From an uncultured Clostridia bacterium (GTDB lineage Bacteria; Bacillota; Clostridia; TANB77; CAG-508), in contig CANPVP010000007.1 of assembly GCA_947581825.1 (NCBI GenBank), positions 7,543 through 71,542 on the forward strand: a DNA stretch of 64,000 nt, written 5' to 3'. The first letter of the stretch is position 1. Each line of letters opens with the position of its first letter. The notes beneath the pieces were generated by a model. It was not told the DNA's origin, made no database searches, and saw only the letters and a list, made by a program, of their open reading frames with translations. The translations under genes and the position numbers were made by a program. Below are positions 1 through 41,868 of this stretch, one piece after another.

Positions 1-3000
1 TGTAAATACTAATGGAAAATATAAAGATGGAGAGCAAACATTTACATTAGTACTAACTGAGCAAGAGAGTGGAAGATATATACCACTAGAACATGATATA
101 GAAATTGAGTATACTTGTAAATATGATACAACAAATGATAAATGGGAAACTAAGTATACAAAAGTAAAATATGGAGACAAACAGGCAGAGGTTAAAGTAC
201 AAAATAGCGAAGCACAAAATCTTACAGGTTTACTAGATACAGATGAACTAGGCTTGTATCAGAAAGGTACTGATATTTACGTAGTAAATAAACCAGACTT
301 TAATCCAGCTCAAATACTATTACAAAAGAAAGATGAAGAAGGAAATCTTATAAATGGAATTACTTTCAAAGGAAAAGTTGAGCAAGTAAATCCTATAGAA
401 GGTGAAAAAGCAGATGCTGTAAATTTCGAAGTAACAACTGGTGAATCAAAAGATGCTAATGGAAATATTCTACAAGGTGTTGCTTTAATAGATAATATAA
501 ACTTATCTAGAGAAATAAAAATTACTATAGAAAGTGAAGCATGGAAAGATAAAAATAATAAACAGCCTCTAGAGTTCCCAACAGAACCTATAGTAATTAC
601 AGGAATAGAAGTATATGATGATTGGGAAGGAAATATTGGATATAAAAAGATAAGAACAAAAGATGATAGTGGAAAGATTACTGTACAAATAGGTGAACAA
701 GAAGCACAAACAATTGATGTAAATAATAAAGACGAAGCTTCTGAAAACCTTGTATCTTTCACTGGAAATGACAGTAATGTTGTAACATTCTATATTACAA
801 ATAAAAATAAAACATATGATCTAGATGGAAAAGATGCTGATACAGGAATACCATTCCCATATAAAGTTGAAAGAGACATTTTAGGAAATGAAAAGAACGT
901 AACAGAAGGAATTACATTTACTGGAAGAATAGAAGATAGCAATGGAGAAATACTACAAGACCCAGTAACTGTACAATTTAAACAAAATGTAAATTCATCA
1001 GCAGATGGGGCAAATGGAGAAGTAGGCATTGAAGCTAAAGATATTAATGGAAAAATATCTGTAAAAGAAGGAGAACAAGAAGAAGAATATAAACTTATTA
1101 TAAAAGAAAATAATGTATCAAGTAACAACACTGATGCTGTAACAGTTATATACACTTGTAAATATAATAGCGATGAAGACGAGTTTACATCAAAAATAAA
1201 AGCCTATGAGTACAATGGAAAAAGATATGATTTTAACAAGAATATGGAAGAAGTTAAAAAAGACTTAATTCCAGGTGAAGTTAAAGATGATGGTGCAAGA
1301 ATAAATATAAATGATTTATATGTTCCTATAAGAAAATTTGATGAATATGGAAATCTAATAAATGGAGTTGTATTCAAAGGAAAAATAAAAGTAAACATAG
1401 AAAAAGATGAAAATGGACATCCAAAGGATTTTAACTTAAAAGAAGAATATGATTTTATAACAGTAACTGGTGGACAATACTGGAATGATGAAACAAAGCA
1501 GATGGAAACAGCTCCAGATGGTGTTGCAGTAATACCAATTCCAAGTGAAGTAAAAGGAGATTTCACTATAACTATTGACGAAGAATATTGGGGAACTTAC
1601 AAAGAGAATAAATGGACTACAGAAAAAGGAAAATTACCAGATGGACAATTCCCACTAGAATTTGTAAAAGGTGTAGTAGAAATAGGTGGATATGGCATTA
1701 AAGAAGAGACAAAAAATGATATAACAGAAAGAACTGTAACATATAACGGAACAACTGTTAAATATACATTAAATGGTAGTGAAGAAAATAGTGAACCTAT
1801 AGAAGTAGAAAATTATAAAGCTGTAACTACAGATGAAAAAGGTTATATTAGATTTATAAATAATGAACTTAGATATGATTTGAAAAAATCAACTGAAACA
1901 GGAGAAGGAAACAATTTATTTGATGATAAATTTTTAGAGACAAGTTATGGATATAGAACTAAAATAAAAGAAGGAATTTATTTTACAGGCTATATAGTTG
2001 ATGAAACTAAATATGATGAAAAGGGAAATATTATTAAACCTAGTGTAACATTACAAGAAGGTAGAAGTACAAAAGATCCAGAAGACAAAAATAAAGTTAC
2101 TGTTGCTTTAGATAAAGATACAGGAGCAATTGTAGCAACAGGAATTAAAGGAAGTATAGCAGGAATAGATGAAAATAAAACCTTTAAATTTGTATTAGAA
2201 GAATTAAGTTCAAATGGTGAAAATGGCACTCTTAATGTAGTACCAATAGATCCAATTGTAGTAGAATATACTTGTAAATATGATAGAGAAAATGAAAAAT
2301 TTGAAACAGCAATAACAGCATATGAATATAAAGGAAAAAAATATAGAATGTCAGATATTCAAGAACAAACAACTGTAGAAAAAGACATAATTCCTGGATT
2401 AGTATGTGTTAAAGAGGAAGAAAGTAGTATTACAGATAAAATTGGATTAATAAACCATGAAAAGACAATTGATATTCCTTTAGTTAAAAAGGATGAAGCA
2501 GGAAGATTAGTAAATGGAATTAAATTTACAGGAAAAATAATAGCATTAGACGAAGAATATAAAGACGAAAATGGAAAACCAGTATTTGAGACTACAGAGG
2601 AAACAAACAATAATGAACAACCTACAACAAAGAGAAAATCAATGAATTTTGAAGTAGTAACTGGTGAAGTTCCAACAAAAGATTCAATAAAATTAGATGG
2701 TAGCAAAAATGAAGCAAATAATAGCGAAGATAAAAACTTTACAGATGAAGATGGAAAACCAATGTATACAGCTCGTGATGGTGTTGCTTTAATACCTCAA
2801 ATTCCTTATACTGGAAAAGTTAAAATTATTATTGAAAAAGAAGAATGGGCAGATGAGGATTATAAGCCAGCTCCAGGAGATCCAGACCTTGAATTTATAG
2901 ATGGACAAATAGAAGTAACGTTTAGTATTGTCAAAGATAAAAATGGTGAAAAACACATAAATTATAATGGTGGAATGCAAATTGAAGTTAAGGATAGAAA

Positions 3001-6000
3001 TGGTCAAAATATTACAAATGACTATATGGATCCAAAGAATAATCAACACAAGATTATAGTTGGACCAAATTACTTGGGTAAAGATGAAAAAGATTTTGCT
3101 TTTGGAATTAGTGTTACAAATAAATTTAAATCTTATGATGTGCCAATAGCTCTAAAGGTAATTGAAGAAGATACAAATGCTGAAAATGAAGAAAATAATG
3201 AAAACAAAAACATTGTAACAGTAAATAATAAAAAATACAGACAACCAACAAAAGAAGAAGCAAAAGAAATTAAATTTAGAGCAGAAGTTACAGATAGTAG
3301 TGGAACTGTAGTACAAACTTTATTACCACTAACACCAGACGATATGGCAAAAGCAGATGCAGTAGGAATTGGAATTGAAGTTAAAGATATAGATAGTGAT
3401 GGCAAAGAAGAAGCTGTTATCATAGCAAAAGGTATAAAGGGAAGTATTAATAAAGGTGAAGATTTAATTATAAAATTACAAGAAGTGTATTCAGGCGGAT
3501 TAGAACCAATACCAGATATAAAAGTTCATTATAAAATTGAAAATGGTGAAGCAAAAATAACAAAATATGAATGCAATGGACAAACAGATGAATGTAAACA
3601 ACAAAATAATGGAACATGCAAGATAAAAGATTTAATTTATGTTAGCGAAGATGGTAAATATGCATTAGTAAATAAACCTGAAACAGGAGAAGGACCAAAA
3701 GAAACAACACCAATACTTACAATTAAAAAAGTAATGAATGTAGATGGACATGAGGTAGGAGTTCCAGGTATATACTTTAAAATAAGAGTATGTACTGAAG
3801 AATGTAAAAATGATTGCAAAGATCCAGATAAATGCTCTTGCCAAGAAGGTGAAGAACCATGTGAAAAATGCTTTGATTATACAGCAATTTCACAAGCATA
3901 TGGATTAACTACATTCAAACTTACAGATTTTGCAAAAAATAAAGAAGATATAACAACTGGCAAAGTAAAAGTTATTATACTAGAAGAAAGATTAGCAACA
4001 GAAGAAGACAAAGCAAAAATTAAAGAAAATTCAGAAGAAACATCAGAAGATGAGAAAACAGCAGAAGTAGCACCATATACTACTGAACAACCTGGAGAAG
4101 TTAAACTTGAATTTATTAAAAATCCAATTGTAATTAATGGAATTGAAATAAAGAATGGTGAAGAAGAAAATGGAGATAAACAATGTAAAGTAGATTATAC
4201 TAATGCTACAGTAGCTGATACAAACAGTAATGTAAGCTTTGATAATCAAGTAGGAATGCAGATTGTATTTACTAATAAAGAAGCTACATTTGATTTAGAT
4301 TTATTCAAAGGTAAAATGATTAACTATATTGGTGAATTAGAACAAATCTATAAAGGTGTAGAATTTGAAGCTGATGTAGTTAGAGCAGAAGATATAAAAG
4401 CAGAAAACATAGCAGAAGTAAGCTTACAACATATAGTTTCTACAACTGATGAATCTACTGCTGAAAATACAGGCGATAATGGAAACTTAGCTACAACTGG
4501 AATTGAGACAAATAATGGTAAAATTCAAATAAAAGGAATTAAAGGTACTTTTGCATCAGAAAGTAATGAAGAACAACAAGAAAATGCACAACAATATGCA
4601 GTGGTATTAAGAGAAACAGCATCAGAAATATCAGATGCAAAAGATATGCCAACAATGGCAATTGTATTTGAAAGTAAATGTACAACAGGAACAGACGGAA
4701 AATGCACATTCACCCCAACTATAAAAGAATATAAATGGCAAGATGATAATGGATGGCATACTTTAAATGCATTGCAAAATCTTGAACGTGATGAAAATGG
4801 CAATTTAGAACAAGTCCTTGTTACTAATAGAATGTTGAGAAAGATTGAAAATGGTAAAGAAGAAACATATATAGTTAATACACCACCAACAACAATAATT
4901 GGTGGAGGATATTTACCAACAACAGTTGATATTCCTTTAGTTAAATATGATGAAAATGGAAATTTAGTAAATGGAGTAAAATTCTCAGGACATATAGAGG
5001 TTGGTAATCAACAGAAAATGAAATTCTCAACAATAACTGGTGAAGTTCCAACAACAACAATTGCTAATGGATTTGAAAATGTATATGTAGCTCGTGATGG
5101 TGTTGCAATAATACCAAAAATTCCATTTACAGGAGAAGTTAAAGTAGTTATTGAAAAAGAGGAATGGGCTAGTGATGCTTATAAACCATCTGCAGGTTAT
5201 CCAGATCTAGAGTTTATAGATGGAAAAATAGAAATAACATTAACTATAAATGAAGATGAAAAAGGAAATAAACATATTCAACAAGGTGGCATAAGCATAG
5301 CAGTAAAAGGCAAAGACGATAAAGACATTACAGACCAATATATTGATAGAAAAAATGGTAATAATAAAGTTTTAGTTGGATTAAATAGTTTAAATAAAGA
5401 TGATAACGAAGATAACGAAGAATTATTATTCGGAATTAAAATTACTAACAAAATTAAAACTTATGATTTACCAATAGCATTAAAAGTAATTGCAGAAGAT
5501 AACGAGAATGCTAATGGAGCAAATACTATAAAAGTAGGTGATAAAACATATAGAACACCAAGCACAGAAGAAGCTAAAGAACTTAGATTTAGTGCAGAAG
5601 TTTTAGATAGTACTGGAACTGTAGTACAAAACTTATTACCATTAACACCAGAACAAATGCAAAATGCAGATGCAGTGGGAATTGGAATTGCTACTAAAGG
5701 ATCAGACAACAAAACAGAAGCTGTTATTACAGCAAAAGGAATAAAAGGAAGCATAGTAGGAGATAACTTAACGATAAGATTACACGAAGAGAATTCTGCT
5801 GGATTAGAACCAATACCAGATATAGATGTTCATTATAAAACAATTGGAGATGATGCTCCAAAAGTAACATCATATCAATGTGGTGAGAAAACAGTAGAAA
5901 ACAGTGCACCAACAAATGGTGAACAATGCAATATAGAAGATTTAATTTATGTTAGCGAAGATGGTAAATATGCATTAGTAAATAAACCTGGAACAGGAGG

Positions 6001-9000
6001 AGGACCAAAAGAAACAACACCAGAACTTACAATTAAAAAAGTAATAAATGTAGATGGACATGAAGTAGGAGTTCCAGGTGTACACTTCAAAATAAGAGTA
6101 TGTACTCCTGAATGTAAAAACGATTGTACAGATGTAGCAAAATGCGGATGTGAAAACAATAATGATTGTGATAAATGTTATGATTATGAAGCAGTTTCTA
6201 AAGCAGGTGGTTTAGCTACTTTTGAACTTACAGATTTCAGCAAAGATACAACAGCTCAAAACATTGATAATCTAAAAGTAATTATATTAGAAGAAAAATT
6301 AGCAACAGAAGAAGAGAAGGCACAACTAGCAAAAGAAGGAGTTGAACCATATACTACTGAAAACCCTGGAGATGTTAAACTTGAATTTATTAAAAATCCA
6401 ATTACAATTAATGGAATACAATTAAAGAATGCTACAGAAGGAAAAAAGACACAATGCACAGTAGATTATACTAATGCTACAGTAGCAGATGAAAATAGTA
6501 ATGTACGTATCGATAACAACGCAGGAATGCAAATTGTATTTACTAATACAGAAGCAACATATGATTTAAAATTATTTGATAGCAAACTAGTATATGAAGA
6601 TAATAAATTAAAACAAATCTATAAAGGTGTAGAATTTGAAGCTGATATAGTTAGAGTTGAAGACATAAATGCAGAAAACATAGCAGAGAAGAGTTTACAA
6701 CATTTTGTTTCTGAAAAAGCCAAAGCTACTGCTAATAACACAGGCAAAAATGGAGATTTAGGTACAGTAGGACTAGATGAAAGTAATGGTCAAATCAAGC
6801 TAAAAGGAGTTAAAGGAACTTTAGAAGGAGATAATGGACAAGAATATGCAGTTATGTTAAAAGAAACATCATCAGAAGTATCAGATGCAGACGATATGCC
6901 AACAATGGTGATTGTATATAAATGTACTTGTACAACAGATGGAAATGGAAAATGTCAATTTAAACCAGAAATCGAAGAATACAAATGGCAAGATGATGAA
7001 GGATGGCATTCTCTAAATCCAACTCAAAATATTCAAACAGGTGAGAATGGACAGATAGAAAAGAATGAAATTATTGTTGATGGTAGAGTTAAAATACAAG
7101 TATTAGACGATAATAACAAGGTAGTTTCTCTAATTAATGATGGTGGAAAAATAGAACTTTCTACTTCTGAAAGTATTAAATTAACTAAAAAGGACAGCAA
7201 TGGAAATACAGTAGGAGGTATAGAATTTAAAGGAAAAGTAATTGCTTTAAATGCTGATGGAACACCAAAGAAAGAAGCTATGTCAGATGAACAAGGAAAT
7301 ATTATACAAGGCACAAAGAATATTGAATATGAATTTGATGTAATAACTGATAATAAAGGAACAGCTTTAATATACACACCAGATGCTAAAGAAATGCCAA
7401 AATACGAAGGTAAAATTAAAGTTGTTATTGAAGATGAAAAATGGGCAGCAAGTGTAACAGAGCCACCTTATAAACTAGGCTTTGCAGATGAAATAATCGA
7501 AATCACAGGATTAGAGTTAAAAACAGAAACAACTGGACAACTAAAAAACGGAAAAATTGTACACACTAGAGTTATTTATCCAGAACAACTTACTGTAACA
7601 TCTTATAAAAAAGGAGAAAATGGAACAAAAACAGAAGCAACAAATACATACAAAGATAAGGTTTCATTAGGTAAAGATAGTGTTATAGGAATTGAAATTG
7701 AAAACTCAATTTTAGACTATGATGTAGATTTATTTGATGCAAAAATCTTAAAATATGGTGAACACTATGAACAACTAAATTCAGATGTTACATTCTCAGG
7801 AAGAATTATAGGCTACAAAGGTAAAGATTCTAAGCAAGAAGCTAAAGACTATGATGTAGAAGTTAAATTGATTGAAGAAAATGATACAACATCAGGACAA
7901 CAAGGAACAGCAAATGGTAAAAAAGGTAAAATCGTTGCAAAAGGAATAAATGGAGAAATAACAGGAAGCGGTATATACTTAGAACTAATAGAAAAATCTA
8001 TTAATTATGATGTAGAAGATGTAACAGTTATAATCAAATATGATTATACTCCTGATGCACAAGGAAAAGGTACACCAGTTATAAAAGAATATAGAAAATG
8101 GAAAGATGGTGTAAAGGGTGAAGCAAAAGGAAATGTTTCAGATAATACTACAGATTTAATTTGTAATGCAGAAGGTGATGATAATGCCAAAGCATTAATT
8201 GGTGAAATGATTTATAAAAACTATAGTGATACAGCTAAGAATAGCTTAGTAAATATAGTTACTCCAAATCCACTAGACCTTCAAATTAAAAAAGTAGATA
8301 GCAATGGAAAACCTGTTGCAGGAATTAAGTTTACAGGAAGAATAATTGCTGTAGATGATAAAGGTGAAGCTAGAAAAGAAAAAGATGCACAAGGAAAAGA
8401 AGTTGAAATCAAGAAAGAATTTACAACAAGTATAGCAAACTCAGAAGAGCCTCTACAATGGATTACATCTGATTCAGATGGTGTTGCAAGTTTACACTTA
8501 ACATCAGAAGAAGTTAATAAATTTGCAGGAAAGATTAAGATTGAAATAGACAGTGAGGAATGGAGTACAGATGAAAAAGATCCATTAAGAGTTGACTCAT
8601 CAAAACGTACACCATTAGACTTTATCGATGGAAAAATAGAAATTACTGGAAAGAAAATTGATGTTCAAAAAGATAAAACAAGTAGTATAATAAATGCTGA
8701 AAATAATGGAACACCAACAGTAAAAATTATGAAAGATAAAGAAGATGTTACTGAAAAATATAAAGATAGAGTTAATGCAAATTCAAATGAAATTGCTTTA
8801 AGCATGAAGAATATTATTAAAGAATATGATTTAAAATTATTTAATAAGAAGATTATAAATGTAAATGGAGAAGAAATACAAATTAAAGGAGCCATTACAT
8901 TTACAGGAGAAATTAAACAAAACGACCAAACATATCCTATTACTATAGCTTTTGGTCCAGAAACAGATGGTGCAATTATTGCAAAAGGTATCAGAGGAGA

Positions 9001-12000
9001 GATAGTAGGAGATAATATTAAACTTTCAGTTAAAGAAGCAAAAACAATTCCAGGAATTGTTCCAGTAGATTTTGATATAGTATATTCTTGTACATATAAT
9101 GATGGTAAGTTTGAAACAACGATATCAAAGAAAACAATTAAAGACCAAAATACAGGAGAAACTCTAAAAGAAATAAATGGAACAAATGAAAATGGAGATG
9201 TTTTAGAGGAAGACATTACAAAAGATGGTGTAGAATTACAGATTAGAAAAGTGGATGAACATAATGTACCAGTAGCAGGAATTAAATTCTCAGGAACAAT
9301 AACATCAGAAGAAAATAATGGTGGAAAAATAACATTTTCTACTAAGGCAACTGATGAAAATGGTATTACAACTATAATTATTTCAAAAGCTGATATAGAG
9401 CAATACATAAAATTAGGTAGGTTTAATGTAGTTATAGACAAAGAAGAATGGGATAATGGAGCAGAAGCAAAATGGAATGCAATAGCAGGAAATGCTGATA
9501 GAAAACTTCAATTTATAACCTCACCTGTAACAATTTCAGGTTATAAGTTATTTGAAACTTGGGATGGTAACTATGCTCATAGAAGTGTAGACTTTAGTGG
9601 AATAAGCTGTGAAGATACAGAGCATGTTGAACTAGAAAAAGATACAGTAACAATTAAATTTAAAAACAACGATTTAACATACAACATACCATTTATTAAA
9701 ACAGATAAATTATTAACTAATGATAACCAAGATAGTGCTGAAAAATTAAAAGAAGTATCATTTGATATTTCTATAAAAGAAAGTGATGAAGATAACAATC
9801 CACAAAGATTTTATACAACATCTGATGACAATGGTAGATTTGATATAGAAGGAGTTTCAAAATTTGGAGATAATGTAACTTTAACATTAAAAGAGATTAC
9901 TTCTGAAAATGAAACAGCCCAAATGCTAGATGAACCAATAATAATTACTTATAAAACTGTAATAAGTAATGGAAAAGTTTCATTAGAAAATGTAAAAATT
10001 AATGGTAAGGAAATAGATGCACCTTCTGATGATCAAGTTAATAAAACAGATATAGAAGAAGAAAAAGAAAACAATATACAAAAAATCGATGTACAACAAG
10101 ATGAAGGAATAGTGTTAGCAGGATTTAATGTTGTAAACTTTAAAAAATATAGAATTACAATAGATAAAGACTTAAAAGTTGAGGATACAACAATAGATGC
10201 AACTGAATCTGTAGGATTTAAAGGTATTATTACAACAGATCCAAGTAAAGTAAATGGCAATAATACAATTATGAGTTATAAAGATTTTGAGAGTAAGTTA
10301 GAAACATGGAAGAATAGCTCTGATAAAGATGTAATTTACTTTGATGGTCATACAACTGGTGGAAAATTAGAAATTCCAAAAGACATAGATTTCTATGATA
10401 AGCAAGTTTATGTGTACTTTATTGAGTACGATGTTCCAGCTACAATGACTGAAATTAATGAGGTTATGTGGGCATCATTCAATAAGAGAATAACAAATGC
10501 TGAGGCAAATAGTGCATCTTCAGCAGGTAATGTTGAAATTACAAATACAGATACATTAAATATAAGTATTAAAGTTGTAAACCAAGCAAAATCTTATAAT
10601 GTTAACTTTAAGAAAATAGATGCACAAGATCCAAATAGGCAAATTGACTATAGCAATGCTAAATTTACAGTACAATTAAAAGCTTTGAAAGAAGACAACT
10701 CAGCTACTGAAGTAGTTGATACAATGGATATTGAATTTAATGGATTAGGAAAAATAAAAGAACAAACAAAGCCTGGAAAATACTTAGTTGATGCAAAATT
10801 TGAAGATAATCAAATTAAAATTGATGTAAATAAATTTGGTAATTTACAATTAGTAGTAACAGAGGATAGAGCACCAGCAAATTATCAAAAACTAGATACA
10901 GATATTGTAATTAATTATAAAGCAAATGCAGAAGCATCAGAAAAAGACAAAATAATAACTGATGTTCAACTTGAAAAGAATACAAATCCAAGCATTAAAG
11001 ATAAAATAAATGCAAAACCTAATGCTAAAGGAAATGATGTAAGCTTAGACTTCACATTACCAAACTATCCAAATGAATATAGTTTAACGATTAAGAAAAA
11101 ATCTAGAACAAATCCTGACAGTATATTAAATAATATTCAATTCCAATTATTGTTCTACAAAAATAGTGATAATAAAGAGAGATTTGAATATCTAGAAAAA
11201 ACATTGTATGTTGTTAATGGAGGAAAAGTAACAGTAGATGGCTTAAAAGAATATGGTGCAAATTATATGGTACTTCATGAAACAGAAACTGATGGAAAAG
11301 TAGTTAAGCTTCCTGGATATCATGTGTTTAATGTAGAAGCAGTAGTTGGACAAAAACCAAAATTAACATACTTAGGAATGTTTAAATCAGATAAAGAAAA
11401 AGAAGCTGATTATACTATAGAAGAAATAGATAGTAAGTTTAAAGAGCAAGATATTTCTAAACTAGATAAAGCATATAGTAGTTATTTCAAAACAGATGAA
11501 AATTCTGTTGAAGTAGGAAGCTTAGTTGTTGGAAATGATGAACCAAAACTTTACGATATAGATATATTAAAAATAGCTGAAGAAAAAGATGCAAAAACTG
11601 GAAAATCAAATCCACTAGAAGGAGCAATATTTAACTTATACTTAACTAAATCAGATGAAGATTATGCAACAGGAGAGAACCTATTAGATGTTAAATATAG
11701 AAGACAAACAACACCAGTAGATGGACTTATTTCTATCAAACAATTAGATAAGTATAGCGATAAATATGGTGATTTAAAATTAACCTTAGTTGAAGAAAAA
11801 CCACCAAAAGACTATAAAACAGTATTTAGTAAAATAGAAGTAACATATAATACAACAGATGGAAAAACTATTGAAATAAAATCAATAAAAGTATTTGATG
11901 CAAATAATAAAGAAATGTCAGATTACAAAAAATATGTAAACATAACTAATGGTAGTACAGACAAGAAAATAGAAGAATCTAAAATAGAAATAAGTGTTCT

Positions 12001-15000
12001 AAATCCACATAAAAAATCAGTACCATTAGGAATAAAGAAGGTTTACTATGAAGAAACAATAGAAAATGGACAAAGAACAAAGAAAGAAAAACCTATTAGT
12101 AATGCAACATTTAGTGGTGTCGTTTATGAAATAGGTAATCCAGATGATAAAACACCATTTACATCTAAACCAACTGGAGAGGACGGTACTGTTAAGCTTG
12201 GAGACTTCTATGTTGAAGGCGAAATTGAGGTAGTAATCGAAGAAATTAGTTCACCTGATGGATTTGAAAAAATACCTAAAACTACAATAGAGTGTTATGT
12301 TGGCGAAGAAAACAAGGCTACTAAAATAGATAAAAAATATGAAATTTCTACAAATGCAATAGAGTCAATTGAATATACTAATAATATGAATCTATTAAAA
12401 GTTGTTGATACACCAATTTTTGAAACAGACATATCTTTAGCAGGTATTGTTTGGGAAGATAGACCAACAACATTAAGTGAAAAAGAAGAGGCAGATTATA
12501 CAGTAGTCGATGGAAATAAGTATGTTGCAGGAGAAGGTTTTTATGATGAAGGTATAGATAAACTTATTACAAGTAAAAATGCAGATGGTGATGCTACATC
12601 AGAAGTAAATGATGTTGTAGATGGTATGATAGTTACATTACATAAATTAGAGCGTAATGATAAAAATGAGTGGAGAGAGAAAAATGAATACACAGGTTTT
12701 GCAAAAGTAACAACTGGTGATACAGGAAGATATGAATTTAGGGAATTAGACCCATTTGCAAAATACTATATTACATTTAAAATGGAAGGTAAGTATAATT
12801 CTGAAGATTATGAGCATGTTCATTTCTTAGTAGAAAAATTAAATGTTAGCGGTGAAGGTGATAATAAAACAGTAACAATAGACGATTATAACTCAATAGT
12901 AGAAGCAAAAGCTGCAAATAATCTTGAAAGTTGGAAACGAAATTCAAAGGCAGTAGCAGATGGTGTAGAGTCTGGCAATGGCGTAGATCCAAATATTTCA
13001 ACAACAACACAAACAAGAAATGCTAGAGGAAATAAAAACGGTGTTAACAAAATGGATAATATACAAAAATATCCAGTAGATGATTACTTTACTATAGTAG
13101 ATAAAGAAAAATATATAGATGAAAACGGTGAATATAAAGGAGCTTATGTACTTTTCAATGTAGATGTAACGGATAGTCAAAAATCAAATCAAACTATTGT
13201 CTATGCAGATTACTCAACAAGCGGAAAAGAAGAAGATAAGATTGAATTTAGTTCTTTAGATCCATGGCATGACTATATAAACTATGGTATCGTTGAAAAA
13301 CCTAAATTTGATTTATCACTAAGCAAAGATGTTGAAGAACTTTCAGTTAAAGTAAATGATAAAACGATGAAATATATATATGGTAACAAGATTGATTCAG
13401 GACATATGTATACATTAGAAATTAATGAAGCAGATATATCAAAACTAGCAGATATGAAAATTATTTATAAGATAGTTGTTAAAAACGAGAGCGTTAATCC
13501 AGGATACTTAAATTCAATAGCTGATTACTACAATTCAGACCTTATGAAATTTGAAAGCTGGAGTTTAGACGGAAAAAACTACGGAAAAACTGGAGTAACT
13601 GAAACAGAAGAAACTGGTTTAGTACCTGAGCAATATATAACAGGAGTAGTTGATGCAGATGGTAATAGTACAGGTGGAACTCTAACAGTAAATGGAGCTA
13701 ATACAAAACGAGTATTAATTCAAATTCCAGATGCTGAAGAAGGTAATAAGGATAAGAATAGAACAATATATTCAGGTGATGAAAATGCTAAAACAATTCT
13801 TATAACATATCAATATGATACAAATAAATTAAAAGAAAATGATAGTTTGTTTGGTAAGATTGCTAAAGCAGGAGATTCATATGTTACATTAGGACCAGCA
13901 GAAATTTATAGCAGTAATAGTCTAGGTGGCAGAAGAGATATAAACTCAATAAATGGAAATTTATCAAGTAAATTTACTGGTATTTATAACGAGCAGTTGA
14001 AAACTTTCTACACAAATTATGATAATGAGGGTGCATATTATCAAGATTTAAGACATAGCCTTGAAGGTGAAACAGATAAAGATGATGAAGATGTAGCACC
14101 AGCATTAAAAATACTAATAGCAGATCCAGGCAATAGAAAAATAACAGGTTCAGTATTTGATGATATAGAGGGAAACGGCTGGAAAGATGAAAATGATATA
14201 AATATTAAAGGAATAAAAGTTGAATTGTATAAGTGTGATGAAAATGGCAATATTAGAGAGGATGCAAAACCTGTACAATCAACCCAAACAGATGAAGATG
14301 GAAAATATGAATTTGTAGGAATTGAAACAGGATATTACAAAGTAAAATTCACATATGGTGATGAAAATACTCTATTACCTAAATTATATACAAGTACATA
14401 CAATAATGATTTATTAAAATATGTACAAGAACTACAAGAATTACCTGAATGGAATGATGAAGAAAATAATACTATTTATCCAAGAAATAATGAAAATTCA
14501 TATAATGGATTAGAATATGAAGATTCTACTCAAAATAAAATTATAGAGTATAATAGAGGAGATGAATATTGGTATAAGCAGAATAGAGATGAGGCATATT
14601 CTGATGCTGAAGACGAAGATGCATCAAGAAAAAAAGCAGATACAACTTTAAATGAAAGCGAATATTCTACAACAACAAACTATTATTTTATGGATAATGC
14701 AAAAGCCGAATTATTGTATTCATATAGAGGCGATATAACTCAAGAAGAAGTTCAAGAATACATTAGAAAATTAAAAGAAAATTCTGTAACAGCAACAACA
14801 GAGAAATTCAAAATTAATATTATGGATACAGATAGTGACGAACTAACATATGTTACTACAACAGAGTCAGGAGAGACACAATATACAGATGGTGAACATA
14901 TAATTGATACAGGATGTGAAGCTCAAATAGACTTTGGTGTTAAGCAAAGACCAAAAACAAATCTTAAAGTTGAAAAAACTGTAGATAATGTAAAAATCTT

Positions 15001-15856
15001 TACAAGTTCTGGAAATTCTAATGTAGATGCTTCTTACAAAGATGGACGTGCAATAGGGCAAGTAGGAAGAGTACAATGGAGTAAGGATTCTATTGCAGGA
15101 GAAAATGGAAATGGCAACAGAGGATACATTTGGATACAAAGATCAGAAGAAGAAATTGTAGGTGCTACATTAGAAATTACTTATAATATAAAAGTTAAAA
15201 ACGAAGAAGATGAAGCAACTAGAAAAGATCAATGGGTAACTATTGTAGATTATGTTCAAGAGGGTATGACATATTCTGATGAGAATAATACTGGTAATGG
15301 ATGGAATCTTCAAAAGGCTACAACTAAAGACAATAAGTCTTCAATTGGTAATATTTATATAAACAAAAATATTGACTTGACAAATGTAAGCACAGTAGTA
15401 ACACAAGACGTAGAATTACAAAATGGAGAATCAAAAGATATTAAGATTACATTAACAAAAACTCTAAATTCTTATAGTAATACTGATATTGATGCATATA
15501 CAAACTATGTAGAAGTAATATTAACAGCAACACCTGATATGGCTAAGAGTGACAAGAATTCTATACCAGGAAACTTCGATCCAAGTCAAGAAACAACATT
15601 AGAAGGAAACTTAGGAACAATATATGATTTACATCAGAATAGACGTGAAATAGAAGAAATACCATATGATCACCCAACTGAAGAAAGAACAACAATGAGA
15701 TTGGAAAGAGATACAGCAAAAGCACTAGAAACAATAAGTATTACAGCGGAAACTGGTGAGAATAGAAATACAGTATATTACATCTTGGCATTCGCAATAA
15801 TAGCAGTATTTGCAACAGGTATAGGAATAATTATTAAAAAAGTAATTAAGAAATAA
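1..15856 (+). CDS. Giant cell-surface fibrillar adhesin-like protein, 5'-partial (reading frame open from nt 2 to the window edge, so the true start lies upstream of the window). Tandem SpaA/Cna-B-type isopeptide domains, SdrD-B-like domains, conserved C-terminal module and a C-terminal TM anchor.
   Basis: 15.6-kb uninterrupted ORF in frame 2 with no in-frame stop from nt 2. Recurrent Cna-B/SpaA signatures, for example KKVDSNGKPVAGIKFTG, TEDRAPANY and LVEEKPPKDY (E-x-x-AP-x-GY type). SdrD-B-like segments such as KITGSVFDDIEGNGWKDEND...TDEDGKYEF...GYYKVKF. C-terminus ends ...ITAETGENRNTVYYILAFAIIAVFATGIGIIIKKVIKK, a hydrophobic helix plus basic tail. Colinear with gene 2 from about nt 22600 onward. 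Confidence 0.85.
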   Translation, partial: VNTNGKYKDGEQTFTLVLTEQESGRYIPLEHDIEIEYTCKYDTTNDKWETKYTKVKYGDKQAEVKVQNSEAQNLTGLLDTDELGLYQKGTDIYVVNKPDFNPAQILLQKKDEEGNLINGITFKGKVEQVNPIEGEKADAVNFEVTTGESKDANGNILQGVALIDNINLSREIKITIESEAWKDKNNKQPLEFPTEPIVITGIEVYDDWEGNIGYKKIRTKDDSGKITVQIGEQEAQTIDVNNKDEASENLVSFTGNDSNVVTFYITNKNKTYDLDGKDADTGIPFPYKVERDILGNEKNVTEGITFTGRIEDSNGEILQDPVTVQFKQNVNSSADGANGEVGIEAKDINGKISVKEGEQEEEYKLIIKENNVSSNNTDAVTVIYTCKYNSDEDEFTSKIKAYEYNGKRYDFNKNMEEVKKDLIPGEVKDDGARININDLYVPIRKFDEYGNLINGVVFKGKIKVNIEKDENGHPKDFNLKEEYDFITVTGGQYWNDETKQMETAPDGVAVIPIPSEVKGDFTITIDEEYWGTYKENKWTTEKGKLPDGQFPLEFVKGVVEIGGYGIKEETKNDITERTVTYNGTTVKYTLNGSEENSEPIEVENYKAVTTDEKGYIRFINNELRYDLKKSTETGEGNNLFDDKFLETSYGYRTKIKEGIYFTGYIVDETKYDEKGNIIKPSVTLQEGRSTKDPEDKNKVTVALDKDTGAIVATGIKGSIAGIDENKTFKFVLEELSSNGENGTLNVVPIDPIVVEYTCKYDRENEKFETAITAYEYKGKKYRMSDIQEQTTVEKDIIPGLVCVKEEESSITDKIGLINHEKTIDIPLVKKDEAGRLVNGIKFTGKIIALDEEYKDENGKPVFETTEETNNNEQPTTKRKSMNFEVVTGEVPTKDSIKLDGSKNEANNSEDKNFTDEDGKPMYTARDGVALIPQIPYTGKVKIIIEKEEWADEDYKPAPGDPDLEFIDGQIEVTFSIVKDKNGEKHINYNGGMQIEVKDRNGQNITNDYMDPKNNQHKIIVGPNYLGKDEKDFAFGISVTNKFKSYDVPIALKVIEEDTNAENEENNENKNIVTVNNKKYRQPTKEEAKEIKFRAEVTDSSGTVVQTLLPLTPDDMAKADAVGIGIEVKDIDSDGKEEAVIIAKGIKGSINKGEDLIIKLQEVYSGGLEPIPDIKVHYKIENGEAKITKYECNGQTDECKQQNNGTCKIKDLIYVSEDGKYALVNKPETGEGPKETTPILTIKKVMNVDGHEVGVPGIYFKIRVCTEECKNDCKDPDKCSCQEGEEPCEKCFDYTAISQAYGLTTFKLTDFAKNKEDITTGKVKVIILEERLATEEDKAKIKENSEETSEDEKTAEVAPYTTEQPGEVKLEFIKNPIVINGIEIKNGEEENGDKQCKVDYTNATVADTNSNVSFDNQVGMQIVFTNKEATFDLDLFKGKMINYIGELEQIYKGVEFEADVVRAEDIKAENIAEVSLQHIVSTTDESTAENTGDNGNLATTGIETNNGKIQIKGIKGTFASESNEEQQENAQQYAVVLRETASEISDAKDMPTMAIVFESKCTTGTDGKCTFTPTIKEYKWQDDNGWHTLNALQNLERDENGNLEQVLVTNRMLRKIENGKEETYIVNTPPTTIIGGGYLPTTVDIPLVKYDENGNLVNGVKFSGHIEVGNQQKMKFSTITGEVPTTTIANGFENVYVARDGVAIIPKIPFTGEVKVVIEKEEWASDAYKPSAGYPDLEFIDGKIEITLTINEDEKGNKHIQQGGISIAVKGKDDKDITDQYIDRKNGNNKVLVGLNSLNKDDNEDNEELLFGIKITNKIKTYDLPIALKVIAEDNENANGANTIKVGDKTYRTPSTEEAKELRFSAEVLDSTGTVVQNLLPLTPEQMQNADAVGIGIATKGSDNKTEAVITAKGIKGSIVGDNLTIRLHEENSAGLEPIPDIDVHYKTIGDDAPKVTSYQCGEKTVENSAPTNGEQCNIEDLIYVSEDGKYALVNKPGTGGGPKETTPELTIKKVINVDGHEVGVPGVHFKIRVCTPECKNDCTDVAKCGCENNNDCDKCYDYEAVSKAGGLATFELTDFSKDTTAQNIDNLKVIILEEKLATEEEKAQLAKEGVEPYTTENPGDVKLEFIKNPITINGIQLKNATEGKKTQCTVDYTNATVADENSNVRIDNNAGMQIVFTNTEATYDLKLFDSKLVYEDNKLKQIYKGVEFEADIVRVEDINAENIAEKSLQHFVSEKAKATANNTGKNGDLGTVGLDESNGQIKLKGVKGTLEGDNGQEYAVMLKETSSEVSDADDMPTMVIVYKCTCTTDGNGKCQFKPEIEEYKWQDDEGWHSLNPTQNIQTGENGQIEKNEIIVDGRVKIQVLDDNNKVVSLINDGGKIELSTSESIKLTKKDSNGNTVGGIEFKGKVIALNADGTPKKEAMSDEQGNIIQGTKNIEYEFDVITDNKGTALIYTPDAKEMPKYEGKIKVVIEDEKWAASVTEPPYKLGFADEIIEITGLELKTETTGQLKNGKIVHTRVIYPEQLTVTSYKKGENGTKTEATNTYKDKVSLGKDSVIGIEIENSILDYDVDLFDAKILKYGEHYEQLNSDVTFSGRIIGYKGKDSKQEAKDYDVEVKLIEENDTTSGQQGTANGKKGKIVAKGINGEITGSGIYLELIEKSINYDVEDVTVIIKYDYTPDAQGKGTPVIKEYRKWKDGVKGEAKGNVSDNTTDLICNAEGDDNAKALIGEMIYKNYSDTAKNSLVNIVTPNPLDLQIKKVDSNGKPVAGIKFTGRIIAVDDKGEARKEKDAQGKEVEIKKEFTTSIANSEEPLQWITSDSDGVASLHLTSEEVNKFAGKIKIEIDSEEWSTDEKDPLRVDSSKRTPLDFIDGKIEITGKKIDVQKDKTSSIINAENNGTPTVKIMKDKEDVTEKYKDRVNANSNEIALSMKNIIKEYDLKLFNKKIINVNGEEIQIKGAITFTGEIKQNDQTYPITIAFGPETDGAIIAKGIRGEIVGDNIKLSVKEAKTIPGIVPVDFDIVYSCTYNDGKFETTISKKTIKDQNTGETLKEINGTNENGDVLEEDITKDGVELQIRKVDEHNVPVAGIKFSGTITSEENNGGKITFSTKATDENGITTIIISKADIEQYIKLGRFNVVIDKEEWDNGAEAKWNAIAGNADRKLQFITSPVTISGYKLFETWDGNYAHRSVDFSGISCEDTEHVELEKDTVTIKFKNNDLTYNIPFIKTDKLLTNDNQDSAEKLKEVSFDISIKESDEDNNPQRFYTTSDDNGRFDIEGVSKFGDNVTLTLKEITSENETAQMLDEPIIITYKTVISNGKVSLENVKINGKEIDAPSDDQVNKTDIEEEKENNIQKIDVQQDEGIVLAGFNVVNFKKYRITIDKDLKVEDTTIDATESVGFKGIITTDPSKVNGNNTIMSYKDFESKLETWKNSSDKDVIYFDGHTTGGKLEIPKDIDFYDKQVYVYFIEYDVPATMTEINEVMWASFNKRITNAEANSASSAGNVEITNTDTLNISIKVVNQAKSYNVNFKKIDAQDPNRQIDYSNAKFTVQLKALKEDNSATEVVDTMDIEFNGLGKIKEQTKPGKYLVDAKFEDNQIKIDVNKFGNLQLVVTEDRAPANYQKLDTDIVINYKANAEASEKDKIITDVQLEKNTNPSIKDKINAKPNAKGNDVSLDFTLPNYPNEYSLTIKKKSRTNPDSILNNIQFQLLFYKNSDNKERFEYLEKTLYVVNGGKVTVDGLKEYGANYMVLHETETDGKVVKLPGYHVFNVEAVVGQKPKLTYLGMFKSDKEKEADYTIEEIDSKFKEQDISKLDKAYSSYFKTDENSVEVGSLVVGNDEPKLYDIDILKIAEEKDAKTGKSNPLEGAIFNLYLTKSDEDYATGENLLDVKYRRQTTPVDGLISIKQLDKYSDKYGDLKLTLVEEKPPKDYKTVFSKIEVTYNTTDGKTIEIKSIKVFDANNKEMSDYKKYVNITNGSTDKKIEESKIEISVLNPHKKSVPLGIKKVYYEETIENGQRTKKEKPISNATFSGVVYEIGNPDDKTPFTSKPTGEDGTVKLGDFYVEGEIEVVIEEISSPDGFEKIPKTTIECYVGEENKATKIDKKYEISTNAIESIEYTNNMNLLKVVDTPIFETDISLAGIVWEDRPTTLSEKEEADYTVVDGNKYVAGEGFYDEGIDKLITSKNADGDATSEVNDVVDGMIVTLHKLERNDKNEWREKNEYTGFAKVTTGDTGRYEFRELDPFAKYYITFKMEGKYNSEDYEHVHFLVEKLNVSGEGDNKTVTIDDYNSIVEAKAANNLESWKRNSKAVADGVESGNGVDPNISTTTQTRNARGNKNGVNKMDNIQKYPVDDYFTIVDKEKYIDENGEYKGAYVLFNVDVTDSQKSNQTIVYADYSTSGKEEDKIEFSSLDPWHDYINYGIVEKPKFDLSLSKDVEELSVKVNDKTMKYIYGNKIDSGHMYTLEINEADISKLADMKIIYKIVVKNESVNPGYLNSIADYYNSDLMKFESWSLDGKNYGKTGVTETEETGLVPEQYITGVVDADGNSTGGTLTVNGANTKRVLIQIPDAEEGNKDKNRTIYSGDENAKTILITYQYDTNKLKENDSLFGKIAKAGDSYVTLGPAEIYSSNSLGGRRDINSINGNLSSKFTGIYNEQLKTFYTNYDNEGAYYQDLRHSLEGETDKDDEDVAPALKILIADPGNRKITGSVFDDIEGNGWKDENDINIKGIKVELYKCDENGNIREDAKPVQSTQTDEDGKYEFVGIETGYYKVKFTYGDENTLLPKLYTSTYNNDLLKYVQELQELPEWNDEENNTIYPRNNENSYNGLEYEDSTQNKIIEYNRGDEYWYKQNRDEAYSDAEDEDASRKKADTTLNESEYSTTTNYYFMDNAKAELLYSYRGDITQEEVQEYIRKLKENSVTATTEKFKINIMDTDSDELTYVTTTESGETQYTDGEHIIDTGCEAQIDFGVKQRPKTNLKVEKTVDNVKIFTSSGNSNVDASYKDGRAIGQVGRVQWSKDSIAGENGNGNRGYIWIQRSEEEIVGATLEITYNIKVKNEEDEATRKDQWVTIVDYVQEGMTYSDENNTGNGWNLQKATTKDNKSSIGNIYINKNIDLTNVSTVVTQDVELQNGESKDIKITLTKTLNSYSNTDIDAYTNYVEVILTATPDMAKSDKNSIPGNFDPSQETTLEGNLGTIYDLHQNRREIEEIPYDHPTEERTTMRLERDTAKALETISITAETGENRNTVYYILAFAIIAVFATGIGIIIKKVIKK
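2470..4929 (+). repeat. Intragenic tandem repeat unit, copy a (about 2.46 kb, roughly 820 aa, multi-domain module containing the 7-Cys insert).
   Basis: Begins gatattcctttagttaaa (DIPLVKKDEAG...) and is colinear, domain for domain, with nt 4930-7090. Stretches are nearly identical at nucleotide level, for example 3628-3710 versus 5938-6020. Confidence 0.8.
4930..7090 (+). repeat. Intragenic tandem repeat unit, copy b.
   Basis: Begins with the identical gatattcctttagttaaa (DIPLVKYDENG...). Same domain order as copy a: VTGEVPT..., ARDGVA.IP, KIRVC-Cys cluster, YAVxLxET..., KEYKWQDDxGWH. Confidence 0.8.
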
Positions 15857-15886
15857 TAGTTACTGTAAATAATAATAAACCTAAAC

Positions 15887-15913
15887 AAAAAAACGAGCTT
15901 TGCTCGTTTTTTT
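15887..15913 (+). terminator. Rho-independent terminator of giant gene 1.
   Basis: aaaaaaacgagc-ttt-gctcgttttttt: perfect GC-containing stem with a 3-nt loop followed by a T7 run, 31 nt after the stop at 15854-15856. Confidence 0.8.
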
Positions 15914-16233
15914 GTTACCTCCAACTATTTGTTTTTATATTATATTATCAAAATTTTCATCAGCTTTTTTGGACAAAAAAAACGCAAAACTGGCTTTTCC
16001 CTAAGTATAGTGACATTTCAAATAAGCCAATGTAATGAAAAAATAATATAAATGAAACATTATGACATCAAACCCGCATCCGTAAAGACTTAGAGAGAAT
16101 ATTACTATATAATATATTGAAAAAAAAATTACAAAATGCAAAAATATCTATAAGTATGTTGCTAATTAACATAAAAATAATCGACAGCGATAAACACTAA
16201 ATTTAATACTAAAAGAGAGTAGTATTAAAATGA

Positions 16234-16245: not shown

Positions 16246-19200
16246 ATGGAAAGGATAAAACAAAAACTACTAGCAATAATCCTAATAATAATAGCTGGAA
16301 TAGTAGGATACCAAGCATATGTTATGGCACATGGATATCCAAGAGCAATTGGACAGGGTGTACCATTTTGGTCAAATGGATCTATGGTGTATTGTAGAGA
16401 GCATAACAATGGTTGGGGCTATGGACAAGGAGCTGCTGATAGAGCATCCTATTATGTATGCGTTGGCGAAGTTAGCACGGTGGCTAAACAAGCTGATGGA
16501 CTAGCATATTATGTATCTAGAGCAAGTGCAAGAAGTATACAGGATTTAATATGGAGTAAAAGTGGATCTAGTGCAGGACAATCAATAATAAATATGGGAA
16601 CTGATTTTAGAAGTTGGTTTGCACCATGGGGCAGTGATAATTTTGCAAATTTATTTTCTATAAATGAAGGAAATAAAGAAACAGGAAATGAAGAAAAAAA
16701 TTCAGCTTCAATGGAGGCTTTACGCAAAGATGTTACTGTTAAAGTTGTTGATGAACTTCCTGACTGGTTTTTTACAAATGTAAATGCTGGTTCTGTAGGA
16801 GAAAGTGATAAAAAGAATAATAGTACAGCTCTTTCTGATAGTGAAATAAACGTGATTATTAAGGAATATGAAAAAAATCACACAAAGGAAGAAACAGAAG
16901 CTTTTAAAAAAGAATTAAAAGATGCACAAAATAACGAGAAAATAATCGAAACAACAGTAAACAAGGTAATTAATACTATAAAAGCAAAGAGTATAGACAT
17001 AAATAGATTTACTGAAGAGCAGAGTAATGAACTTAAGGCAGAAATTCAAAAAGAAGAAGGTATAAAAAATAGTATTATTCCAAGTAAGAAAAAAGAAATT
17101 GAGCAACAAATTAAAAATAAAGAGAGAGAAAATGTAAATGATATAAATAAAGTAGCAACTGAAGAAGTAACAGAAGATATTTTACAAAGAGCAGTAACAA
17201 AAATTGAATTAGAGCAAAATGAAAAAGAAGAAGAGAAAATAGAAAAAGAATTAAAGAAAATAGAAGAACTTTTAGAAAAAGAAAATTTACAACAAGATTT
17301 AAGAATAATAAAAGAAGATTTAAAGACTATAAGAGATAATTGGAATACTACAAAAGAAAAGTACAAAGCAAATCAAATAAGTGTAGAAGATTATAAGAAA
17401 ATAGAAGATGAATACTATAACAAAGTATTAAAAGATATACAAACAATTTTAGTAAATAATTATGAAAATACTGAAGAGTTGAATCAATATAAAGGAAATC
17501 AAGATGCAAGTGAAGAAGAATCTTATAATTTAGTAGACTTAATAGTAGAACAATCAGGCAAAATAAGTGATATATCTTATGATGAATATAAATATTTATA
17601 TGATATGCATAAATTATTTCAATTTTTTGGTAGTTACAAAAACCAAGCAAATACCTTTTTAGATGGAAATGTAAATTCAGAATCATGGAATTTATTATTA
17701 AGACATTTAAATAGTTATTCATCAGATGGTACAAGTAATTTATTAAGAAAAGTAGATAAAAATATCTCAATGGCTGATAAAAATTCTACAACATATGTTT
17801 CAAATGTAACTCAACTTGATCAATCTAAAATAGTTTCAGTAGAAAGTAAAGATAATTCATATGGAACTGCTGTAGACATTTATGCACATTATCAATTAAA
17901 TTTAACAAGCGAACAACAAGCAAAATTGAATAGCATGAATAATGAAAATGAGAAAAGAGAATATCAGAAAACAATTGGACAAACATTATGGGCTTATCAA
18001 TCAGATAGAAAAAAAGATAAAGATGGAAAAGAGATTACACATCAAATAACAATAGATGGACAACAAAAAACTTATTATGAATATGAAAAAATATATTTTG
18101 AAGATCAAGCAGATTCTGTTGTTTCTTTCTTTAGTGAAGAACTACTTTGTATAGGAACAGACGATCAAGATGGTGTAATTGGTACAAATGCAAGCGAAAC
18201 TAGTGCTTTATTAAAATATATTGAATGCTTTAAAGATGATGCAAAGGGTACTACAGAGTTTTGTTCGTTTATAAAGAATAAATATCCTAATTTAGCAAAA
18301 CAATTATCAGAAGCAAAAGGAAGTAATTTAAGCGAAAGAATAATAAATTTATATAATAAATATACAAGCAAAATAACAAATATCTGCCAAGAAGATAATT
18401 CAGAACATTACTATGTATATAAAAATAAAGTGGAAGAAAATTATTGGGATCTTAATTGGGGAGATACAAAAAAAGCAGCTAGATTATATCAATGGTTGAT
18501 GACAAGAGATGCAGAAGGTGTAACTAACATAGATAAAATAGCAGGTCAATTTTCAATTGATGATACTGATGCAAGGGTTTCAATAGATAGAGTAAGTGGA
18601 AAATATCTTATTGGACCATATACAATAAATTATTCAACTTTGATATTAAATGGTGAGAAATTATTAGGAATAGATGATTTTTCAGTATTGTTATCAATGG
18701 GAGAGAATGGAAAAGAAGTAAATAAAGTTCTAACTCAAGGAGATGGAAAAGACCAATATAATATAGTTTGTATGAAAGGTACAACAAGAAATATTAAAAA
18801 TAAAGATGGAAAAACTATAGAAGTTCCTAAGAGTGGAAATTCATTCTTTATTGAATTAGATAAAGATGTAAAAGGTAATGGAAAACGTTTAACAGAAAAT
18901 GATATATTTAAATTTAATATTTCATATGAATACTTAAAGCAAATAAATGCAACAGTTCACTTATTAAGAGATAGTGCAAGTGATGCATCTAGTGGTACTC
19001 CTGATATATGGAATTCTTCTCACCCTCAAAGATTAATGACATTTACTTGGAGATCAGAAAGAGATTATATTGATAAGTCTATTGCAACTAGTACAAGAGA
19101 GTATGACTTTAAATTGAGAAAAACTGATAAAGAAACAGGTAAAGGTGTTAATGGTGGTAAATATATTGCTGCTGCAAAATATAAAAATTCAAAAGATGGT

Positions 19201-37230: not shown

Positions 37231-37306
<76 letters not shown>

Positions 37307-41265: not shown

Positions 41266-41868
41266 ATGTCGTACTATTCACCTTCAGTAGAAAAATTAAT
41301 AGAAGCTTTTGAAAGGTTACCTAGTATAGGAAATAAGACGGCAATAAGATTGGCTTTTCATATGTTAAATGCAAGCCAAGAAGAAATTAATGAGTTTACA
41401 TCAGCAATTATAAATGCAAAGAAGAATCTAAAATATTGTTCTATTTGTTATAATATATCAGATACTGATCCATGTCCTATATGTGGAAATGCTAAAAGAG
41501 ACGCCACATCAATTTGCGTAGTAGAAGATGTAAGAGATGTTATTGCTATGGAGAGAACTCATGAATTTAAAGGAACATATCATGTTTTGCATGGTTCTAT
41601 ATCTCCAATGAATGGAATAGGACCAGAAGATATAAAAATAAAAGAATTATTAAATAGAATAAATGAAAATCCAAATATAAAAGAAATAATACTTGCAACA
41701 AACCCTAGGGTAGAAGGCGAAGCAACAGCTATGTATATATCAAAATTAATAAAACCACTAGGCATAAAAGTTACAAGAATAGCACATGGAATTCCTGTAG
41801 GAGGAGACTTAGAATATACAGACGAAATTACATTAATGAAAGCTTTTGAAGGAAGAAGAGAATTGTAA
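41266..41868 (+). CDS. recR: Recombination protein RecR.
   Basis: 200 aa. HhH N-terminus [18 protein letters not shown]4 zinc finger [16 protein letters not shown]. Toprim region. Confidence 0.9.

Follow-up and report, generated by a model that had tools for sequence, protein, structure and literature searches.

Non-allelic gene conversion as the probable origin of near-identical patches in two tandem giant surface-protein genes of an uncultured Clostridia bacterium

We describe two tandem giant genes carried on a 64,000-nucleotide stretch of DNA from an uncultured Clostridia bacterium (positions 7,543 to 71,542 of the forward strand of contig CANPVP010000007.1, assembly GCA_947581825.1), which is referred to here as the window and in whose coordinates all positions are given. 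Gene 1 (2..15856, + strand) and gene 2 (16246..36285, + strand) are paralogs that encode repeat-rich giant surface proteins; they lie on the same strand and are separated by a 390-bp spacer. Gene 2 is intact and encodes 6679 amino acids. The frame of gene 1 is open from position 2 and its 5′ end lies beyond the edge of the window, giving at least 5284 codons; counted from the first start codon, its open reading frame (ORF) is 254..15856. The two genes are strongly diverged overall, but contain two short patches that are nearly identical. We conclude, with a probability of about 0.9, that both patches are tracts of non-allelic (interlocus) gene conversion between these full-length paralogs. The alignments show two tracts with defined breakpoints, within which synonymous sites have been homogenised and the phylogenetic signal is discordant with that of the surrounding sequence.

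In a codon alignment of the two genes (4190 aligned codons), they share 63.5% nucleotide identity and approximately 47% amino-acid identity. Calculated over 90-nt windows, identity has a median of 62%, reaches 84% at the 95th percentile and peaks at 96%. Divergence is not uniform: against the median of 62% there are two islands at 91–96%, and windows of this identity are confined to 8810–9200 in gene 1 and 29116–29505 in gene 2, and to 15404–15523 and 35800–35922, respectively. A preliminary description of the window had pointed to patches at 8821–9040 versus 29130–29345 and at 15421–15510 versus 35822–35905. Both are present essentially where it placed them, with 205 of 220 aligned positions identical in the former (93.2%) and 82 of 90 in the latter (91%), although the positions it gave for gene 2 are shifted by about 3 nt. 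It also took the mosaic pattern to be a hallmark of recombination or conversion. As shown below, this holds for non-allelic gene conversion, with silent sites homogenised and orthologues discordant, but not for the additional statements that the conversion is ongoing and is a mechanism of variation.

The larger patch, which we call tract 1, was delimited using the two-breakpoint maximum chi-square segment and alignment of the breakpoints. It comprises 8812..9214 (+) in gene 1, the donor copy, and 29118..29520 (+) in gene 2, the converted copy. The two copies are 403 nt long and align without gaps, with 376 identical positions (93.3%). In the nucleotide alignment the 5′ breakpoint is bracketed to 8799–8811 in gene 1 (29105–29117 in gene 2), and the 3′ breakpoint lies between 9214 and 9215. 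The flanks of the tract are collinear and, in gene 2, are of the gene-2 type, indicating a replacement rather than an insertion.

The similarity extends to silent sites. Synonymous divergence (dS, calculated by the Nei-Gojobori method) between gene 1 and gene 2 is 0.065 inside tract 1, compared to 0.735 elsewhere. The same residue is encoded by 116 of the 140 aligned codons in the tract, and for 112 of these 116 it is encoded by the same codon, against 69% elsewhere. The ratio of non-synonymous to synonymous change, omega, is 1.07 in the tract (20 non-synonymous and 5 synonymous differences) and approximately 0.6 elsewhere; as an indication of positive selection on tract 1 this excess is not significant (Fisher P = 0.5–1.0, on 20 + 5 changes). 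It is therefore the silent sites, and not the protein, that are unusually similar in tract 1, which is the opposite of what purifying selection would predict.

Relatives of these genes are rare. An exhaustive HMMER search of 1.84 billion representative proteins identified only four family clusters, all of them from uncultured Clostridia, and a scan of a genome collection identified a single relative locus (L001), in a rabbit-gut metagenome-assembled genome (MAG) labeled ‘uncultured Clostridia’. The giant ORF of L001 is the orthologue of gene 2, with an amino-acid identity of 60–66% to the gene 2 protein and 37% to the gene 1 protein. The best relative of gene 1 is P0002 (6806 residues, 55–63% identical), which we took as the gene-1 orthologue. 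Of the other records, P0001 is the gene 2 protein with one substitution, P0005 is identical to the gene 2 protein, P0003 is a distant third member of the family, and P0004 is a weak match only. A word-indexed protein search with the region 8198–9736 returned no matches, although relatives exist and were later found by HMMER, and a scan of Joint Genome Institute (JGI) metagenomes with tract peptides found no relatives. A second JGI metagenome scan was not used, because the species of the window and of the gene-1 orthologue both carry the peptide searched for and yet both were missing from it.

The three-way codon alignment of gene 1, gene 2 and L001 shows that tract 1 departs sharply from the history of the rest of the genes. 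Outside the tract, gene 2 and L001 have nucleotide identities of 0.78–0.93, as expected for orthologues, while gene 1 and gene 2 have identities of 0.50–0.80. Inside the tract the relationship is reversed: the identity of gene 2 to L001 is approximately 0.60 and that of gene 1 to gene 2 is 0.91–0.96, with gene 1 and L001 at about 0.6 both outside and inside. The dS between gene 2 and L001 behaves in the same way, at 0.79 inside the tract and 0.23 in its flanks. In the comparison with L001, 141 of the 155 informative sites in tract 1 pair gene 1 with gene 2, compared to a background of 26%. An exhaustive two-breakpoint scan gave this segment a binomial log10 P of −65.6, against 10^6.9 possible segments; its site-pattern segment score is 93, where the maximum in 500 shuffles was 11. 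The patterns at informative sites flip abruptly, with sharp breakpoints.

The direction of the transfer was examined in a four-taxon alignment of proteins. The gene 2 protein is 0.60 identical to the gene-1 orthologue inside tract 1 and 0.40–0.57 in the flanks, while its identity to the L001 protein is 0.43 inside and 0.77–0.80 in the flanks. The gene 1 protein is 0.62 identical to its orthologue inside the tract and 0.60–0.74 in the flanks. In addition, L001 has insertions of 18 and 15 amino acids within tract 1, and both are absent from gene 1, gene 2 and the gene-1 orthologue. Because the gene 2 protein is close to the gene-1 orthologue here and lacks the insertions of the gene-2 type, these comparisons show gene 1 as the donor and gene 2 as the acceptor; and because gene 1 is equally close to its orthologue in the tract and in the flanks, its module is native and the transfer was non-reciprocal. 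The identity between the gene 1 and gene 2 proteins inside the tract is 0.85, far above the 0.62 between gene 1 and its orthologue, which places the event after the split from the relatives. Scans for tracts running from gene 2 to gene 1, or within the relatives, gave nothing above the null.

The smaller patch, tract 2, is found near the 3′ ends of the genes, at 15416..15504 (+) in gene 1 and 35812..35903 (+) in gene 2. The two copies, placed on the same evidence, are approximately 90 nt long and 97% identical, and no exact match between gene 1 and gene 2 is longer than the 70 nt that they contain (15435–15504). In this region a fourth nucleotide sequence can be compared, namely L007, a short ENA contig (ERZ27249413) of a related organism encoding a gene-1-type C-terminus, which came from the second protein search. 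Gene 1 and gene 2 are 0.97 identical, and the other five pairs among gene 1, gene 2, L001 and L007 are 0.79–0.82 identical. Both genes of the window carry the codons GAT ATT AAG, a shared derived state, where L001 and L007 have CCA GTx xxx. We read tract 2 as a second short conversion tract on this sequence evidence, and assign donor and acceptor for tract 1 only. The three-way alignment covers approximately 12.4 kb (4137 codons), and only two post-speciation tracts, of 403 nt and about 90 nt, were identified in it. A further segment of gene 2, 35395..35554 (+), aligned to gene 1 14984–15158, was picked out by the four-taxon protein scan, in which the gene 2 protein is nearer to the gene-1 orthologue than to its own (score 10, where the null reaches 6 at its 95th percentile and 11 at most). 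Its nucleotide identities are mixed, and we regard it tentatively as an older or patchy segment of the gene-1 type.

L007 deserves a separate remark. Compared to P0002, the sequence encoded by L007 1–1697 is a mosaic, in which the first 200 residues or so are 30–53% identical and the last 300 or so are 82–100% identical. The contig has a coverage of 1.7x and contains two in-frame stops, one of which splits the called gene. The mosaicism may indicate that recombination is common in this giant-protein family.

Tract 1 corresponds to a structural unit of the proteins. An iterative jackhmmer profile search showed that it is one copy of a module of about 150 amino acids, which is repeated approximately 20 times in each family member. 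The envelope of this module is 8783–9229, compared to 8812–9214 for the tract, and the tract ends are 15–30 nt from the profile boundaries. Other examples of the module are at 6512–7084 and 28045–28491, among about 25 further modules over both genes. The AlphaFold2 model of the module (26 window modules) is confident, with a predicted local distance difference test score (pLDDT) of 88.5 and a predicted template modelling score (pTM) of 0.79. It is all-beta, with strands over residues 14–132; in the tract-1 module the predicted strands are at about 8822–9179. The conversion therefore exchanged a complete folded module.

A fold search of the PDB with the module model, using Foldseek, gave no significant match (best E 0.15, template modelling score 0.26), and neither did a sequence-profile search of the PDB with the module. 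The converted module has no Pfam match; the SpaA prealbumin-like domain (PF17802) weakly matches only 5 of the 26 repeat modules, with a best E of 7e-6. A more far-reaching proposal would be that conversion acts as a module-precise cassette swap, in which giant adhesins diversify by trading whole modules between paralogs and possibly, considering the mosaic L007, between orthologues; recombination would be anchored at the conserved edges of the modules, and the module might represent a beta fold new to the PDB. We consider this proposal doubtful, and offer it as speculation.

Other explanations for the patches were considered. Selection against change in the protein, combined with AT-biased codon usage, could keep the patches similar without any exchange; indeed the tract 2 motif ITLTKTLNSYSNTDIDAYTNYVEVI is conserved in all five family members, and codon bias already produces the background same-codon use of 69%. 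However, few regions are less conserved between orthologues than tract 1, with an identity of 0.43 between the gene 2 and L001 proteins and two indels, and its 20 non-synonymous differences against 5 synonymous ones (omega 1.07) place the similarity in the synonymous sites. In tract 2 the within-genome pair is alone at 0.97, with the other five pairs at about 0.8. The homogenisation of silent sites, together with the orthologue comparison, leads us to reject purifying selection on the protein; it is refuted for tract 1 and very improbable as a general account. A constraint acting on the nucleotide sequence of both copies, imposed either by an RNA element or by a gene on the opposite strand, has in its favor that antisense ORFs at 8665..9441 (−, 258 amino acids) and 28932..29630 (−, 232 amino acids) overlap tract 1 in gene 1 and gene 2, respectively, and are among the longest in both of these AT-rich genes. 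At 29% GC such ORFs seem surprising. Their open runs of 280 and 255 codons are nevertheless within the range of synonymous-codon shuffles (means 211 and 192, 95th percentiles 306 and 287), which is explained by the scarcity of Tyr, Gln and His in this region. The antisense ORFs have no Pfam match, and L001 has no long antisense ORF at the position of tract 1, where its DNA is only about 60% identical. Rfam gave no matches inside gene 1 or gene 2. Since the antisense ORFs fall within the shuffle null and are missing from L001, they are probably not genes, and we attach almost no weight to a nucleotide-level element.

Equally little weight is given to an assembly artefact, in which short-read metagenome assembly would have cross-joined the paralogs, or related species, within the repeat. 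The related records are metagenome assemblies of low coverage (approximately 6x in the contig names), and one related assembly has a suspicious divergent patch in rpoB, so the concern is a real one. But a false join of gene 1 and gene 2 would have left the two copies 100% identical, whereas they differ at 27 of 403 sites; a chimera with a related species would be about 60% identical to gene 1 at the protein level; and the last 10 kb of gene 2 is reproduced exactly in three other independent assemblies. The differences between the copies and the reproduction of gene 2 elsewhere lead us to reject this explanation. Somewhat less remote, though still improbable, is a third source, either an upstream paralog or foreign DNA, that gave the module to both genes. 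The window begins inside gene 1, which leaves room for upstream paralogs; a third, distant family member (P0003) exists elsewhere; and the gene-1-type fragment L007 is itself a mosaic. Against this, the module of gene 1 is native by the comparison with its orthologue (0.62 in the tract, 0.60–0.74 in the flanks), the window contains no third copy of the tract, and a single event from gene 1 to gene 2 accounts for everything. We reject a third-source donor on the basis of the native gene 1 module and the lack of a third copy in the window.

Several points weigh against gene conversion as we have described it. The direction of tract 1 rests on amino-acid identities and indels, since the gene-1 orthologue is represented there by its protein only. 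There is one orthologue per gene and both are distant (dS 0.2–0.4), so that the event is dated coarsely. In the three-sequence test all 11 of 11 informative sites in tract 2 support the pairing of the two genes, but the resulting score of 11 is equal to the null maximum; informative sites are few in this tract, which falls within the motif that the family conserves most strongly. The pairing becomes clear once the fourth sequence is included. The background is noisier in the C-terminal 1.1 kb (14700–15856 in gene 1, 35100–36285 in gene 2), where the share of sites at which gene 1 and gene 2 agree and L001 differs is 0.45, compared to 0.26 gene-wide; this raised share may stem from conversions that are older or patchy, or from the L001 lineage having diverged faster. 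Finally, the recombination pathway has been inferred and not observed, as has the part played by selection or drift in keeping the converted allele.

Gene conversion remains our preferred reading, and on it the course of events was probably as follows. After the split from the relatives represented by the rabbit-gut MAG, approximately 403 nt of gene 1 would have replaced, by non-reciprocal copying, the corresponding module in gene 2, erasing the gene-2-type sequence together with its two insertions, and a second tract of about 90 nt near the 3′ end would have been homogenised likewise. The copying presumably occurred when a break, a gap or a stalled fork in one gene was repaired by homologous recombination, with the other paralog, at a distance of 20 kb and on either the same chromosome or its sister, as the template. 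The exchange would have begun and ended in short conserved stretches at the module edges. Resolution was presumably of the non-crossover type, since crossing over between direct repeats would delete or duplicate the 20-kb interval. Afterwards both copies would have diverged by ordinary mutation, producing the 27 differences, and the converted allele would have become fixed.

The available assemblies indicate the age of the events. Three more metagenome assemblies of this species, each independent, reproduce base for base the last 10 kb of gene 2, which includes both tracts. The last 410–450 bp or so of gene 2 also agrees with two short read-assembly contigs, which reach at most part of tract 2. 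The gene 2 protein sequence has been recorded from several contigs, and the only variant known has a single residue changed, at window position 19564, far from the tracts. No variation of the tracts in gene 2 was seen among the sampled assemblies, and the converted allele of gene 2 is fixed in every one of them. Searches with blastn and tblastn, using the tracts and the gene 2 protein against the rest of the window, found no further copies and no silent cassettes. Of the 27 differences between the copies of tract 1, some arose by change in gene 1 and some by change in gene 2. Comparison of the dS of 0.065 to the orthologue values of 0.23–0.375 gives tract 1 an age of approximately 0.17–0.28 of the split from the nearest known relative. 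The conversion events are rare, and old relative to the sampled within-species diversity. The preliminary description had called the conversion ongoing; with only two post-speciation tracts, 27 later differences in tract 1, and matching assemblies that are identical in gene 2, this is not borne out. It had also presented conversion as a mechanism for surface-protein variation; given that there are no silent copies in the window, no tract variation in gene 2, and no significant excess of amino-acid change, we regard that as speculation.

The genes and their surroundings have the following features. The GC content of the window is 29%. A terminator-like palindromic hairpin (strand not assigned) with 15 pairs and a T run is located between the two genes at 15884..15916, where shuffles would lead one to expect 0.1, and suggests that gene 1 and gene 2 are separate transcription units. 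Gene 2 has its own AAAGGAG ribosome-binding site 5′ of the ATG, and its N-terminus is hydrophobic, as predicted for a signal or anchor. At their C-termini (15700–15853 in gene 1, 36130–36282 in gene 2) both proteins have SITAETGENR followed by a hydrophobic stretch and a KK(K) tail. Such an ending is reminiscent of a sortase sorting signal in which xAETG stands where LPXTG would be expected, and the arrangement is kept in P0002 and P0003, although no NCBIfam anchor model matches the C-terminus of either giant protein. Pfam gives one match per protein to SdrD_B near the C-terminus, with E from 1e-10 to 5e-12; Pfam and NCBIfam together identify nothing in the giant proteins beyond SdrD_B and CarboxypepD_reg near the C-terminus. 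The group against which these features were compared is that of the MSCRAMM-like, sortase-anchored adhesins of Gram-positive bacteria, which have an LPXTG-type C-terminal signal and Cna-B, SpaA or SdrD_B repeats.

The genes located 3′ of gene 2 are ordinary Firmicute housekeeping genes, namely those for a PP-loop protein, tadA, dnaX and recR (41266..41868), the last being a part of the homologous-recombination pathway that is encoded here. A tRNA gene (37231–37303) and the bacterial small signal recognition particle RNA (38954–39053) lie downstream of gene 2 among the PP-loop gene, tadA and dnaX. Two further downstream ORFs match the positions of genes with the Rpb2 (RNA-polymerase beta) and Rpb1 (beta-prime) Pfam domains in matching assemblies. 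In one of the assemblies of the same species (L002, ENA ERZ27249643) the sequence contains a 775-nt patch at 43908–44682, with 128 differences (16.5%) and 27 amino-acid changes, inside an rpoB-like ORF of about 1239 amino acids (42373..46092); apart from this patch, the 20.7 kb matched contain one other difference. The patch came either from another species by recombination or from a chimeric metagenome assembly in a conserved gene.

Conversion between paralogs is a well-known means by which bacteria reshuffle their adhesins and other surface-protein genes, and the mechanism itself is not new. The value of the present case is that donor, acceptor, breakpoints and relative age can all be resolved for tract 1, and that the unit exchanged coincides with one structural repeat module. 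The family in which it occurs is very rare, consisting of proteins of 5000–6800 amino acids that form four clusters among 1.84 billion representatives. The less ordinary aspects are thus the module-precise swap, the rarity of the family, and the unmatched fold. In practical terms, analyses of orthology and selection on such genes must mask the tracts; short-read MAGs can resolve such tracts nonetheless.

The closest comparison among adhesins is with Helicobacter pylori, in which non-allelic gene conversion takes place between the paralogous outer-membrane adhesin genes babA and babB, and sabA and sabB. These events are frequent, occurring within hosts and between strains, and they alter expression or binding. 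As in H. pylori, segments have been copied non-reciprocally between full-length, diverged adhesin paralogs, leaving chimeric genes with sharp islands of identity; conversion in bab and sab requires homologous recombination. The tracts described here differ in being fixed and invariant among the sampled assemblies, and the proteins are unrelated, being giant repeat proteins of the Gram-positive type.

Duplicated housekeeping genes, such as tufA and tufB, undergo concerted evolution. The same is described for rRNA operons, by gene conversion (PMC6002687). In these systems, as presumably here, RecA-type conversion homogenises dispersed or tandem copies, including their synonymous sites; but there conversion is so frequent that the genes are kept nearly identical as a whole, whereas the genes described here have 36% DNA divergence, and only approximately 0.5 kb of about 12.4 kb in the three-way alignment has been homogenised since speciation.

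In programmed antigenic variation, cassette conversion acts on pilE/pilS in Neisseria and on vlsE in Borrelia (PMC3828179). The likeness lies in one-way copying into a surface-protein gene that is expressed, here presumably so. Such programmed systems rely on numerous partial cassettes that are silent and on dedicated cis elements, and their very high rates produce variation within the population. Here both genes are full-length and have their own signals, there are no silent cassettes in the window, and the tracts are invariant in gene 2. Two defining features of programmed cassette variation are thus lacking, silent cassettes within the window and population variation among the sampled assemblies.

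The PE/PPE and PE_PGRS antigen families of Mycobacterium tuberculosis also undergo gene conversion, and their tracts are described as diversity hotspots that are difficult to resolve with short reads (PMC13061034, PMC12046097, PMC1762029). The resemblance is in the short tracts between paralogs and the local islands of identity. In M. tuberculosis, clinical isolates are polymorphic for these events, while no polymorphism was detected among the assemblies sampled here; the organism, the GC content and the protein family differ as well.

In genomic arrangement, the lpl lipoprotein cluster of Staphylococcus aureus is similar, in that tandem paralogs recombine between neighbours (PMC2568036). Both cases involve tandem, same-strand Firmicute paralogs that have become mosaic by homologous recombination between neighbouring copies. 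The exchange unit described for lpl runs from the 3′ end of a gene across the intergenic region into the 5′ end of its neighbour, and the copy number changes (PMC2568036). In the giant genes described here, by comparison, the exchange is intragenic and confined to a single module, and the copy number is unchanged.

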